IMG/VR virus record: IMGVR_UViG_3300028886_000082
Location: 1-64,000 of that record
DNA: 64,000 nt
Origin: a virus
Taxonomy: Duplodnaviria; Caudoviricetes
Reading direction: 5' to 3' (one strand)
The notes under the pieces are model-generated. The model searched no databases and was not told the origin of the DNA. It saw only the letters and a program-made list of their open reading frames with translations. Of this stretch, positions 3,043 through 15,360 are shown in pieces. Position 1 is the first letter of the stretch; each line of letters begins with the position of its first letter. The translations under genes and the position numbers were made by a program.

Positions 3043-3726
3043 TCATACCCTTACCAAGCCTACAAACTTATAGAACCCAAAAATAATCTCCTTTGGTACT
3101 AAGAAGTCTGGATATTCATCGTGGTTGTAGCTCACACAACGGATATTTGCGCCTTCATCATAGATTTTCTTGAAGATTACACCATCTTCTGTGTCCAGGA
3201 CATAATCCTTTCCCCATTCAATGACAAACTCTGCTTTCTTGATGGCTATCTCGTCGCCACTCTCATACTTCGGCTCCATCGAATTGCCCTTGATGAACAT
3301 CGTGTAGTCGTAGTCAGGGAAATTTCTTATTATAGGCATCTGTTCGCATTGTTCTAGCAATACACCCTGCGAGTACTGAGAAAGGCTTCCTGCGGACGCG
3401 GAAACGGGCAATCTCGGTTTTGTAGGTAGCTTGATCACGTCTTCGGTCTTGACCTCTTGCTTTGGCTTGGCATTGCGAAGAACCTTTAACGCATCTCCAC
3501 GTCTAGCCTCTGTTACCATCTCCATGAAGTTGTCAACATTCCACAACTTTGCCATTCTCTCTGATAGTTCGTCTGACGGTAACAGTACTCCGCGTGTGAT
3601 TTTTGAAAGCGTGCCTTGTGTTGTTCCAAGCTTTTTGGCAACCTCTTTCTGTGAAACTCTAGGCTCCTTTTCCTCCAACAATCGGTTGAAGTACTCGGTA
3701 AATTTAGGAAATCTCACCTCTTCCAT
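3043..3726 (-). CDS. CI-like repressor (Cro/C1 HTH plus S24 autopeptidase)
   Basis: SQKEVAKKLGTTQGTLSKI HTH; IKGNSMEPKYESGD and FKKI S24 motifs. Confidence 0.9.
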   Translation of the reverse strand: MEEVRFPKFTEYFNRLLEEKEPRVSQKEVAKKLGTTQGTLSKITRGVLLPSDELSERMAKLWNVDNFMEMVTEARRGDALKVLRNAKPKQEVKTEDVIKLPTKPRLPVSASAGSLSQYSQGVLLEQCEQMPIIRNFPDYDYTMFIKGNSMEPKYESGDEIAIKKAEFVIEWGKDYVLDTEDGVIFKKIYDEGANIRCVSYNHDEYPDFLVPKEIIFGFYKFVGLVRV

Positions 3727-3803
3727 AATCCTAATAAATGTTTATGAATCTTTATTAATTCTAAAAAATCTCGTACATTCTTGGATTATTCCAGAATATT
3801 CCA

Positions 3804-3888
3804 TACCTTTGCCGTTGGTTAAACAAACAATAGAGTGTGGGACTTGGATTTTAATATCCAGTCAATACGATTAAGCACCGCAAATATA
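3804..3888. promoter_or_regulatory. Face-to-face promoters of the genetic switch
   Basis: TACCTTTG (+, 3804-3811) and TATATTTG (-, 3888-3881); palindrome GACTTGGAT/ATCCAGTC lies between them. Confidence 0.5.
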
Positions 3889-3961
3889 GGAATAATTTCT
3901 GAGTTCTGCACTCTTTTGAAAGGTTATTTAAGAGTATTTAAAATTAAACAACAAAAGAGAA

Positions 3962-4189
3962 ATGAACGTTTCAACTGACGACATTAGGAACATACCGCCT
4001 GGGGCACTCAGATTGTTCCCCTGCGAGGATGGAAAGAAGATGCGATCCGCTTGCTCATTGGTTACCACCGTTAAACGTACTGAAATGCCGGAAGGCGTGG
4101 TTGACTATGAGACGCAGAAATTCTTCGACCTCAACATAGTTGCCATCCGTGCACTCCGAGAGTGTGACACAAAGGTTCTTAACAAATAA
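3962..4189 (+). CDS. Small hypothetical protein at the Cro position
   Basis: 75 aa, first gene divergent from CI. Confidence 0.55.
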   Translation: MNVSTDDIRNIPPGALRLFPCEDGKKMRSACSLVTTVKRTEMPEGVVDYETQKFFDLNIVAIRALRECDTKVLNK

Positions 4190-4199
4190 TAGATAAGGT

Positions 4200-4988
4200 A
4201 TGAGTACAGAAATTATTAGGTTTGACAACCAGAAAGTAAAGGGTATGACCTCTTTACAAATTGCCGAAACTACAGGCAAGAATCATAAAGATGTATTGCG
4301 TGACATACGCAATCTTTTAGAGAGAGGAGCTAGCGAGCGCAACTTTGCGCTGACCTCTTACGACGACAAACAAGGTAAGGAGAGACCTATGTATGAACTT
4401 ACACCCAAAGGTTGTCTGATCCTTGCTTCAGGATATGATGTTGTTCTGCGCGAGAAAATAATCGACAAGTTGGAAGAGTATCAGCAGAACGAGGCCACAT
4501 CTGTCACAACCCTACCCGACTTTACTAATCCTGCAGAGGCAGCAAGGGCATGGGCAGAACAGTTTGAGCTTAAACAGATTGAAGCCAAACGTGCAGACGA
4601 GGCCGAATCACAAGTGTTGTCTCTTACGCAGGAGATTGCAACCATGCAGCCTAAAATATCATACTATGATACCATACTGAATAACACTTCTACAGTACTT
4701 ACCACTCAGATAGCACAAGACTATGGAATGTCTGCTGTTGCTTTTAATAAGGTGCTGAACGAGATCAGCATTCAACGCAAGGTCAATGGTCAATGGATAC
4801 TCTATGCACCTTATCTTTCTATGGGTTATGTACAATCCAAGCCAGTAACAATCACCCACACCAATGGAAACCAATCCGTCAAGTACAACACGGAATGGAC
4901 GCAGAAAGGCAGGCTTTTTCTATATGAGGAACTCAAGAAGCACGACATTCTTCCGCTTATAGAGGTTTCACAACAAGGTCTTTTTTAA
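4200..4988 (+). CDS. Rha-family regulator fused to a KilAC/ANT antirepressor domain
   Basis: [24 protein letters not shown] (Rha N-terminus); [14 protein letters not shown]...[12 protein letters not shown] (KilAC). Confidence 0.88.
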
Positions 4989-5107
4989 ATATAATAAGGT
5001 ATGAGCGAAAAATGGTATGACAACGATTGGCTGACAATTATATGGTGTTGCATCGGCATTATATGTATGTTGATTGGAAACTATTACTACAATGGAGGGC
5101 ATTTGGT

Positions 5108-5293
5108 ATGGTAAAGGATGATAAAGGAGATGTGTGGCTCACCACCAAGGAAGCTGCCACCAAACTGAACCTCTCTGTAGGTAGAATCTATCAGATAAAG
5201 AACTCTCTGACCCATCGTAAGATAGGAGACACAAACCAAGGCAGGGTGTTTTTTTTGGAAAGGACTCTTTTCGATGATTATATGAATATGTGA
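5108..5293 (+). CDS. Helix-turn-helix protein (excisionase/MerR-like)
   Basis: WLTTKEAATKLNLSVGRIYQIK; likely ATG at 5108. Confidence 0.7.
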   Translation: MVKDDKGDVWLTTKEAATKLNLSVGRIYQIKNSLTHRKIGDTNQGRVFFLERTLFDDYMNM

Positions 5294-5419
5294 TTTCATT
5301 GGTTTTAGTAGTAATTACTTGTTTTAAGTTTTTAGTTATTGGGATACCCAAGCGTGGGTAATTCGCTTAACAGACAAAGAACTCTACCTGCCATCCGTGA
5401 GGCTCGCAGGCTTTCAAAA

Positions 5420-5506
5420 GGGAAAGTAGCTCAGTTGGTAGAGCGTCACGATAGGTTGCTGGACATCAGTGCCTGAAGGTCGCAGGTTCGAGTCCTGCCT
5501 TTCTCA
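5420..5506 (+). tRNA. tRNA-like RNA with an expanded (21-nt) anticodon loop; isotype undetermined
   Basis: Acceptor GGGAAAG/CTTTCTC, D arm GCTC-AGTTGGTA-GAGC, variable AGGTC, T arm GCAGG-TTCGAGT-CCTGC; anticodon stem TCACG/CCTGA encloses 21 nt; no encoded CCA. Confidence 0.75.
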
Positions 5507-5640
5507 CAATCAGACACACCAAGTCCCAATAGTGCGAATGGGGATATATCGAATGTTTTCATGGCTGATTACAAGCTTGGCGAGTCTTTATACGTGGTCT
5601 TTGACTTATTGGTTTACATGATGAACGTGGAAAAGGCCAC

Positions 5641-5709
5641 GTATGGAGAACCCCCGATCCACAAACCGCAATAGTGCGTAAGGTGGGTAACAAGTCGGTA
5701 GGCTCCTAC
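5641..5709 (+). ncRNA. Long imperfect hairpin immediately 5' of the twister ribozyme
   Basis: GGAG/CTCC, CCGA/TCGG, TCCAC/GTGGG and CGCA-ATAG-TGCG nested stems; 10-mer CAATAGTGCG repeated at 5527 and 5669. Confidence 0.45.
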
Positions 5710-5716
5710 ATTCGTA

Positions 5717-5785
5717 TGCTGTAATGCAGCCCCTTATATAATAAATAAGGTGAGTGTTCCCAAGCCACTAATGCAGAGGGCAGCA
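5717..5785 (+). ncRNA. Twister self-cleaving ribozyme (type P1, with P3)
   Basis: P1 TGCTG/CAGCA, L1 TAA, P2 TGCA/TGCA, P3 CCTTAT/ATAAGG, P4 AGTG/CACT with loop TTCCCAAGC, 3' GAGGG; matches the twister core with both pseudoknots. Confidence 0.9.
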
Positions 5786-5816
5786 AATTATAGGAAAATT
5801 ACAAGCAAATTAAATC

Positions 5817-6128
5817 ATGATAGAACTCCCAACCCGAAGAAGGCTTGAAAGGAGGCGCGACAGGCTTTATGAACATCTTCATTCTATTCTCCATAATGCG
5901 AGCGTTATCCAGGTGGAGAATATCATGAGACAGATTCATGCCATAAACCTAAAGCTGCGCATTTATTTCAAAGGTGGTATTGACCGCCAGCCTCACGAAT
6001 TATTTATTAATCCTGACGAAGACAATGACATTACAACGCAAGACACCGCTACGGGCGAAATCTCCCCTACAGCGGAAGAGTTATCTCAAATCGAAGCAGA
6101 AATCAAAGAAGGAGAAATCCAAATTTGA
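5817..6128 (+). CDS. Hypothetical protein
   Basis: 103-aa ORF in the operon; overlaps the next gene. Confidence 0.5.
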   Translation: MIELPTRRRLERRRDRLYEHLHSILHNASVIQVENIMRQIHAINLKLRIYFKGGIDRQPHELFINPDEDNDITTQDTATGEISPTAEELSQIEAEIKEGEIQI

Positions 6129-6576
6129 GGCCACTGAGGTGAAGGCCAAGAAGAAACTTCCAAATAAGTTTTCAAAAAAGAAACTAATAGAGAAACTTGA
6201 CCGTATCTTCTCACAATATATTAGGCTGAAGTTTTCTGATAGCAGAGGAATATGTCAGTGTATATCATGTACGAAAAGGCAACCCTGGAATGAGATTCAG
6301 AATGGCCATTATATGAGTAGACGTTATTTCTCAACTAGATGGAGTGAGGATAATTGCAGGCCGCAATGCGTTGCGTGTAATATCTTTAATCAAGGGAATA
6401 TACAAGCTTACAGAGTTTCGCTTATTAAGCAGATTGGCGAACAACGTGTTAATCTTGTAGAGGCAAGGGCGAGACAGGAAACTTTCAAGTATGGAGAGTT
6501 TGAACTAAATGCGATGATCAAACACTACACAAAGGAAGTCGAAAGAATAGCAAAAGATAAAGGAATAGAATTATGA
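6025..6576 (+). CDS. ninG: NinG/Rap-like recombination endonuclease
   Basis: KLDRIFSQYIRL, CISC, NGHYMSRR, NCRPQCVACN motifs; likely ATG at 6025. Confidence 0.85.
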   Translation: MTLQRKTPLRAKSPLQRKSYLKSKQKSKKEKSKFEATEVKAKKKLPNKFSKKKLIEKLDRIFSQYIRLKFSDSRGICQCISCTKRQPWNEIQNGHYMSRRYFSTRWSEDNCRPQCVACNIFNQGNIQAYRVSLIKQIGEQRVNLVEARARQETFKYGEFELNAMIKHYTKEVERIAKDKGIEL

Positions 6577-7217
6577 GAACTTGTAAAGTGTGTGGTAAAA
6601 CCAAAGAAGATACTGAGTTTTATGGTAAAACCAAGAATTATACTTGTAAACGTTGCGTATGTGAAAGAAATTCGCGTATAGTATATGAGCGTAACCTTAT
6701 AAAAGAACCAAGTTTAGAAGGAGAAATCTGGCAAACATACCCAAATAATCGGAATTATTTAATATCTACACTTGGAAGAGTCAGAGGTAGAAGTGGTAGA
6801 ATATTACACCCTGCAAAACATCGGCAAGGTTATTTATGGTTAAAGGTTGGCAAATCCCATTGTTTGGTTCATAGATTGGTTGCAGAAACTTTTATACCAA
6901 ATCCATATAATAAGTCAACTGTCAATCATATTAATGCTATAAAATCCGATAATAGAGTTGAAAATTTAGAATGGGCAACTCAGTCAGAAAATAATTGCCA
7001 TGCACTAGGTTTACATCTGAGATACTTTACAAGAAAGATGTGGGAGAACTGCACAAAAGGGCATAAATTATCCAAAAGACAAGTTGACAAAATAAAAACG
7101 GAATATAAAAGTGGCAAACCGCAATTTAAACTTGCAGAAGAATTTCATGTGTCAAGAGCGCAAATATGCAGAATAATAAACGGTAAATCACGAAATTCAA
7201 AATACCAAATCAAATGA
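6573..7217 (+). CDS. NUMOD4/HNH endonuclease with zinc finger and HTH
   Basis: EIWQ...YLISTLGRVR (NUMOD4); VHRLVAETFI...VNHINAIKSDNRVENLEW (HNH_3). Confidence 0.9.
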   Translation: MRTCKVCGKTKEDTEFYGKTKNYTCKRCVCERNSRIVYERNLIKEPSLEGEIWQTYPNNRNYLISTLGRVRGRSGRILHPAKHRQGYLWLKVGKSHCLVHRLVAETFIPNPYNKSTVNHINAIKSDNRVENLEWATQSENNCHALGLHLRYFTRKMWENCTKGHKLSKRQVDKIKTEYKSGKPQFKLAEEFHVSRAQICRIINGKSRNSKYQIK

Positions 7218-15247: not shown

Positions 15248-15360
15248 GGGTGGATAGCTCAGTTGGTAGAGCATGCTGGAGGTGGAGCTGAAACCACGTT
15301 AATCATTAGCTTTAATCCAATAATATAGCAAGGTCAGTGGTTCGAGTCCACTTCCACCAA
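15248..15360 (+). tRNA. tRNA-like RNA with a 47-nt anticodon-loop insertion; isotype undetermined
   Basis: Acceptor GGTGGA/TCCACC, D arm GCTC-AGTTGGTA-GAGC, anticodon stem TGCTG/TAGCA, variable AGGTC, T arm AGTGG-TTCGAGT-CCACT. Confidence 0.75.

Follow-up and report, generated by a model that had tools for sequence, protein, structure and literature searches.

A type-P1 twister ribozyme that probably ends a conserved RNA cassette in the early operon of a temperate rumen phage of Prevotella type

A functional twister ribozyme probably lies in the early operon of a temperate rumen phage of Prevotella type; its predicted cut would end the RNA of a conserved upstream non-coding cassette and free the mRNA that follows. 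The window analysed, a stretch of 64,000 nucleotides, covers positions 1 to 64,000 of an IMG/VR virus record 74,242 nt long, which CheckV rates as complete. Judged on its nucleotides and those of its relatives, the element at 5717-5785 is a real type-P1 twister of the known class, for which a setting among phage genes has already been noted. The locus would offer a concrete and testable role for a phage twister, that of a fixed 3' end-piece to a conserved cassette composed of a tRNA or tRNA-like RNA and a structured RNA. The features are collected in Table 1.

Table 1. Features of the twister locus in the window, and the divergent twister versions found in the same context in related loci
Feature	Position	Strand	Remarks
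Tyrosine integrase, Bacteroidota type	317-1468	minus	
HTH and S24 peptidase repressor	3043-3726	minus	
Small ORF	3962-4189	plus	
Rha/KilAC antirepressor	4200-4988	plus	
HTH_17-like ORF	5027-5293	plus	
Hairpin	5346-5359	plus	in the cassette
GUGA-tetraloop hairpin	5387-5410	plus	sequence reading; 5' part of cassette
tRNA-like RNA with enlarged anticodon region	5420-5506	plus	RF00005, 55.1 bits
Conserved structured RNA	5591-5716	plus	11-bp hairpin and multi-stem domain; directly adjoins P1
Type-P1 twister ribozyme, with P3, without P5	5717-5785	plus	RF03160, MFE fold, covariation in homologues
P1	5717-5721 / 5781-5785	plus	UGCUG/CAGCA
L1	5722-5724	plus	U5722 A5723 A5724
Predicted scissile bond	5722-5723	plus	U5722/A5723; position-for-position mapping on Osa-1-4
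P2	5725-5728 / 5772-5775	plus	UGCA/UGCA
Nucleotides after P2	5729-5731	plus	G5729 C5730 C5731
P3	5732-5737 / 5745-5750	plus	CCUUAU/AUAAGG; 7-nt loop
P4	5753-5756 / 5766-5769	plus	AGUG/CACU
Loop L4	5757-5765	plus	UUCCCAAGC; CCC to T1, GC to T2
Nucleotides before 3' strand of P2	5770-5771	plus	A5770 A5771
GAGGG	5776-5780	plus	5778-5780 form the 3' strand of T1
Pseudoknot T1	C5759-C5761 / G5778-G5780	plus	
Pseudoknot T2	G5729 C5730 / G5764 C5765	plus	
ORF 5817	5817-6128	plus	103 aa, arginine-rich N-terminus; first gene after the twister; followed by a NinG homologue, an HNH endonuclease and an SMC-like ATPase
Twister version, window			P1 UGCUG/CAGCA; T1 CCC/GGG; P4 AGUG/CACU; P3 CCUUAU/AUAAGG; surplus U 5757
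Twister version, L171 type			P1 GAUG/CAUC; T1 CCC/GGG; P4 AGUG/CACU; P5 hairpin at the site of the window's surplus U
Twister version, L179			P1 as window; T1 GCC/GGC; P4 AACG/CGUU; without P3
Twister version, L193			P1 UCUG/CAGA; T1 GUC/GAC; P4 CACG/CGUG; without P3
Twister version, L183			P1 GGUUG/CAACC; T1 GUC/GAC; P4 CACG/CGU (third strand imperfect)
Twister version, L194			P1 CAUUG/CGAUG; T1 CCC/GGG; P4 AGUG/CACU; P2 UGCG/CGCA; P3 CCGC/GCGG

In its gene content the left end of the window resembles the control region of a temperate phage. An ORF-free gap of about 520 nt separates the HTH_17-like ORF from ORF 5817. A scan with sigma-70 promoter and intrinsic-terminator consensus patterns, which fit Bacteroidota poorly, predicted no plus-strand intrinsic terminator between 3700 and 6300, so that a single rightward early transcript is plausible. 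Gene order and the absence of a predicted terminator together make it plausible that the operon is an early one. Inspection of 5294-5345 by eye revealed no TAnnTTTG promoter motif of the Bacteroidota type where the cassette begins. The stretch, like its relatives, is present as contigs in public sequencing runs from bovine gut (parts left uncovered by such contigs carry no meaning, and contigs cannot show RNA ends). Together with a related cassette that lies in the MAG of a Prevotella sp. (L194), this occurrence suggests that the phage group has its host range in rumen Prevotella. A free-standing HNH/NUMOD4 endonuclease gene (6573-7217) lies immediately after NinG; among NinG relatives the insertion points of genes of this type vary.

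The first-pass annotation had described a twister with all its elements complete and in order, and a reading of the sequence located each of them. The stem order that defines the class (P1, P2 and P4, with P3 optional) is present, as are all of the core nucleotides (5722-5724, 5729-5731, 5759-5765 with the motif CCCAAGC, 5770-5771 and 5776-5780). We take G5776 to correspond to the conserved catalytic guanine, G45 of Osa-1-4. Relative to the usual UCCCAAGC, loop L4 contains one surplus U (5757), at the P5 junction. The related L171 lineage carries a P5 hairpin at exactly this site, and the surplus U is therefore probably tolerated. The minimum free energy (MFE) structure of the 69 nt consists of exactly P1 to P4, both alone and within 245 nt of context. 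Since the fold energy is ordinary compared with shuffled sequences (z = -0.28), this agreement denotes consistency and is no proof by thermodynamics alone.

A helix enclosing the twister, formed by the 5' flank AUUCGUA and the 3' flank, was considered and rejected, as 16 to 190 of 300 shuffles reach the duplex energies. The conserved AUUCGUA lies directly 5' of P1, and the 3' flanks of L171 (ACGAAU) and L193 (CGAAU) are complementary to it. The corresponding flanks in L194 are AUUGUUA opposite UAACAAU, and in the window (5700-5716 and 5786-5800) UCCUA pairs with UAGGA instead.

The first-pass annotation had also proposed a search with covariance models, and this produced a match to the twister-P1 family (RF03160) of 40.5 bits, spanning model positions 1-68 of 68. 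The E-value is 1.3e-7 on 401 nt, 5.5e-9 when the 74-kb record is searched with this one family, and 2e-5 when both strands of the full window are searched with all 4227 families. The last of these searches gave no other ribozyme in the window at E <= 1, and the RF03160 search of the 74-kb record gave a single twister. The score is below the Rfam gathering score for RF03160 (67.2), and is lowered here because the model does not correctly align P3, which is long and A/U-rich, or the short P4. The gathering score is the curators' cut-off and no biological feature; it is conservative for phage twisters. Among 16 other phage matches to RF03160 (24.8-73 bits), 15 also fall below it. The Rfam cut-off for twister-P1 thus misses most phage copies, and routine annotation under-counts them.

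Related loci were sought by using an alignment of ORF 5817 with its homologue in L171 as a query on metagenome contigs, which gave ten loci. A search with the pattern of the upstream RNA added two more, L193 and the Prevotella MAG L194. When viral contigs were searched with ORF 5817 alone, no related loci appeared, and a distant-mode search of the GenBank phage collection with 5300-6200 gave no match. The collection includes six divergent versions of the twister in a common context (the window, L171, L179, L183, L193 and L194): in all six lineages the same upstream RNA is followed by the twister and by a homologue of ORF 5817. The version in L183 has one mismatch in P2 and one in T2 and gives no RF03160 match at E <= 1; this copy is possibly decaying. 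Among 63 phages with NinG relatives, a pattern scan found the twister only in L171, and a lineage-trained model agrees. As it occurs in only one of these 63, synteny with NinG is uninformative. The rare P5 hairpin GGAC/GUCC, which lies between the 5' strand of P4 and the L4 motif CCCAAGC in the L171 type, was seen in the twister of L171 (2725-2811) and also in L180, L182 and L185-L188.

Covariation was analysed in an alignment of nine sequences, comprising the six same-context versions and three other phage twisters, with both pseudoknots included in the structure. Paired cells account for 96.7%, and 12 of the 17 pairs show two-sided changes, a level reached in none of 500 shuffles. As a control, the pairing partners were slid by 1-3 columns, and pairing fell to 30-47%. 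Among the homologues, compensatory changes are seen in P1, P2, P4 and pseudoknot T1. The first-pass annotation had considered both pseudoknots (CCC/GGG and GC/GC) to be possible; their strands are present, and T1 also covaries. T1 is 100% paired, with changes on both sides in two of its three pairs (CCC/GGG, GCC/GGC and GUC/GAC). T2 is 94% paired and shows no compensatory change, one of its pairs being invariant and the other having a single unpaired cell. Across all nine aligned sequences there is no variation in the UAA, in the AA of L4 or in the GA of GAGGG. Covariation in a tertiary pseudoknot would be hard to explain unless the twister fold itself has been selected.

In the solved structure of the Osa-1-4 twister the scissile bond lies between U6 and A7, in the UAA that follows P1, and L4 forms T1 and T2 with L1 and L2 (PMC6154101). 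The cut that the first-pass annotation had predicted at 5722/5723 agrees with a mapping onto this bond (PMC6154101). Its figure of 94 nt from A5723 to the A of the ATG at 5817 is also the distance obtained by counting. Once the polymerase has passed about position 5785, T1 and T2 would lock the P1-P2-P3-P4 fold, and self-cleavage would follow at the U5722/A5723 bond. Cleavage would be independent of protein, constitutive and co-transcriptional. The exact ends predicted are a 2',3'-cyclic phosphate at U5722 on the upstream product and a 5'-OH at A5723 on the downstream one. Because the cut of a twister falls at the 5' edge of the ribozyme, almost none of it would be left on the upstream product; the same reasoning has been put forward for HDV-like theta ribozymes downstream of phage tRNAs (PMC10879173). 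No gene for an RtcB ligase was found in the phage.

The sequence upstream of the twister (5296-5716, about 430 nt) forms a non-coding cassette that is conserved and contains hairpins, a tRNA-like RNA and a covarying structured RNA. Its conserved elements are, in order, a GNRA hairpin, a tRNA or tRNA-like RNA, the structured RNA and, always last, the twister. The GUGA hairpin is kept in L171, L179 and L193, with CC/GG changed to UC/GA in L193; in L194 it is duplicated, both copies lying upstream of the tRNA. The tRNA-like RNA, for which ARAGORN gives an odd call, is located 210 nt upstream of the twister, and two further hairpins lie between it and the 126-nt domain at 5591-5716. The equivalent position in L194 (7361-7434) is occupied by a canonical tRNA-Arg(CCU). 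The insert in the anticodon region differs in each lineage (for example, L171 2413-2518), and a CCA is encoded after the acceptor stem in L171 and L179 and is absent from the window. A second tRNA-like RNA lies elsewhere in the window (15248-15360; RF00005, 41.5 bits), with about 51 nt replacing the anticodon loop; the window-wide search with all families gave no ribozyme match near it.

For the structured RNA at 5591-5716, RNAalifold applied to the six lineages predicts 32 pairs, 10 of which show compensatory changes. The 11-bp hairpin is almost invariant (ACGUGGUCUUU/AAAGGCCACGU), and the ten compensatory pairs are in the second domain. A comparison of 5591-5716 with the Rfam families gave no match. 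The DUF2693 RNA (RF02956) was rejected as an identity for the upstream RNA: at 5596-5711 it scores 12.9 bits (cut-off 81.3) and is similarly weak in related records, and it matches 12 of 14 control genomes, which is chance level.

In each of the six lineages the cassette has the twister as its 3'-terminal element. In L181, residues 1-69 of ORF 5817 are 99% identical, yet the DNA ahead of it is unrelated and includes neither cassette nor twister. L184 also has neither, but with just 33 nt of upstream sequence it says little. Joint absence in L181 and joint presence elsewhere indicate that the ribozyme travels with the cassette and that the ORF can do without it; in Prevotella phages the cassette is acquired and lost as one piece. 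The proposal in the first-pass annotation that the twister would cut the cassette from the mRNA fits both its terminal position and the joint absence in L181.

Since the twister is the last element of the cassette, its cut would make the 3' end of the cassette RNA, which would finish in ...GUAUGCUGU with a 2',3'-cyclic phosphate. The canonical tRNA-Arg in the cassette of L194 implies that a normal tRNA-processing site bounds the RNA on its other side. If the 3'-processing activity of the host also cuts after the tRNA-like part, the result would be an RNA of about 215 nt with both ends defined. The mRNA that encodes ORF 5817, NinG and the genes after them would have a 5'-OH end; the folded ribozyme (63 nt) would cap this end, with an A/U-rich leader of 31 nt between the ribozyme and the ATG. 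Translation and decay of the mRNA would in this way be uncoupled from the structured RNA upstream. What the locus adds is a well-defined partner RNA with exact ends that can be tested.

It is very improbable that the element only resembles a twister, having lost the ability to cleave or having arisen by chance as a look-alike without function. The sub-threshold Rfam score, the surplus U in L4, a fold energy no better than that of shuffles and the apparent decay of the L183 copy would all agree with this, but the window-wide E-value of 2e-5 and the complete set of conserved core nucleotides argue against it, as do the compensatory changes in P1, P2, P4 and T1, which indicate purifying selection on a fold that includes the tertiary pseudoknot. 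A more serious alternative, although we consider it rather unlikely, accepts an active twister and places its purpose on the downstream side. The ribozyme would then be an insulator that gives the ORF 5817-NinG message a structure-protected 5'-OH end and frees the start-codon region from the structured RNA upstream, and the upstream fragment would be a by-product. The 31 nt between the end of the twister and the ATG of ORF 5817 and the A/U-rich nature of this leader are consistent with such a role. So is the arrangement in all six lineages, where cassette, twister and ORF 5817 homologue are always adjacent: it agrees as well with a twister that serves the ORF wherever a cassette lies upstream as with one that serves the cassette. 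Phage twister sites more generally are consistent with it too. Among the matches listed, 81 sites have a downstream ORF call, and at 30 of these an ATG-started ORF begins within 60 nt; in L174, L175, L177 and L178 an ATG lies 30-60 nt downstream. However, the L181 ORF has no ribozyme and evidently manages without it, the spacing varies (the ORF in L194 starts about 105 nt after the twister), and the compensatory changes in the upstream RNA would not be expected of a by-product.

We also considered whether ORF 5817 might act on the cassette. In an RNA-protein module, tRNA processing and the twister would cut out the RNA, and ORF 5817 would bind its GNRA hairpins as lambda N binds boxB; we regard this as improbable. 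In phage lambda, nutL lies upstream of N, and RNase III processes the N leader. An N-like circuit, with the GNRA hairpins as nut/boxB-like sites bound by ORF 5817 and the twister in the role of RNase III, parting the bound leader RNA from the start region of the ORF, is in our estimation highly improbable. Some features do resemble such a circuit: the N-terminus of ORF 5817 contains the motif TRRRLERRR (its C-terminus is acidic), its sole Pfam hint is the arginine-rich Cas9 bridge helix (E 0.028), the GUGA hairpin has been kept with a compensatory change and occurs twice in L194, and the cassette and ORF are adjacent in each lineage that has the cassette. On the other hand, BLASTP of ORF 5817 against lambda N gives an E-value of 2.6 with the match outside the arginine motif, and so reveals no homology; no family or named look-alike for the ORF was found in Pfam, PHROGs or the ESM Atlas; the arginine run is weaker in L194; and the scan of 3700-6300 identified no terminators that would need read-through. 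The likeness to the lambda N leader is in outline only, consisting of a cut between a protein-binding leader RNA and a small arginine-rich early gene, and differs in that host RNase III makes the cut in lambda whereas here the RNA itself would do so. We know of no antitermination system in Bacteroidota phages. If the RNA-protein module were real, the ribozyme would be a phage-encoded substitute for leader processing of the host RNase III type in an early circuit of Bacteroidota phages.

The reading that we prefer, in which the predicted cut ends the cassette RNA and frees the mRNA, can be compared with several known systems. With the type-P1 twisters (RF03160; Osa-1-4, 4OJI; env22, 4RGE; PMC6154101) the element shares the order of its parts, both pseudoknots and the predicted U/A scissile bond. 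It has a P3, as do 78% of known twisters (PMC6154101), and differs from known type-P1 examples in its A/U-rich P3, its 4-bp P4, the surplus U at the P5 junction and its context in a temperate rumen Prevotella phage. The sister lineage L171 has a P5 stem, which is found in 1% of known twisters. The chemistry of twisters is well understood. Bacterial twisters are known to occur near phage genes, where their role has been left open and the processing of polycistronic transcripts has been proposed (PMC6765202); the vicinity of bacterial ribozymes to phage genes, again with unproven function, is also described in PMC8782182. The bacterial twister, hammerhead and pistol ribozymes of these studies share with the present element an intergenic position on the coding strand, whereas here there is a defined partner, a cassette that comes and goes as a unit.

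The HDV-like theta ribozymes adjoin tRNA genes of gut phages and have been proposed to make RNA 3' ends without host nucleases (PMC10879173). They belong to another ribozyme class, and have in common with the present twister a self-cut at the 5' edge, a site downstream of a tRNA gene and an origin in gut Caudoviricetes (PMC10879173). In contrast to theta ribozymes, here 137-210 nt of structured RNA separate the tRNA or tRNA-like RNA from the twister, and the end made would therefore be that of the structured RNA and not that of the tRNA. Also in contrast, no link to suppressor tRNAs or recoding was seen at the twister locus.

Viral contigs commonly contain twisters: a degenerate pattern of the core nucleotides matched more than 109 IMG/VR contigs. 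Among the matches listed, 105 of the 120 outside the window have perfect four-position pairing after UAA and before GAGGG, compared with about 2% expected by chance, and P1, P3 and P4 are also present in most. A crude ORF analysis distinguished 86 distinct sites among the matches listed; 73 of them have an upstream ORF call, and at 35 of these 73 the stop lies within 60 nt. These stops, together with the nearby downstream ATGs given above, indicate that many of the listed phage twister sites are intercistronic.

Two or three same-strand twisters, 220-2800 nt apart, are present in some contigs (L034, L039, L040, L043, L054, L066, L071, L078, L088, L095 and L099). The segments between such twisters would bear a 5'-OH at one end and a cyclic phosphate at the other, the kind of ends on which RtcB-type ligases act.

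In three further phage lineages, a number too small for statistics, a twister is preceded at a distance of 225-294 nt by a tRNA on the same strand. These tRNAs are a tRNA-Met (about a dozen loci of the L074 type), a tRNA-Ser (L017/L048) and a tRNA-Leu (L070), and they fit the cassette reading. The module of tRNA-Met(CAU), a spacer of 236-243 nt and a twister, all on a single strand, was seen in L074, L098, L102, L108, L110 and L018, and further in L030, L036, L041, L042, L064 and L086. In L017 (10755-10902) and L048 (6118-6265), where the tRNA-Ser is on the same strand 294 nt upstream of the twister, the twister is followed after 5 nt by an 80-nt tRNA-like RNA to which ARAGORN assigns a 4-base anticodon.
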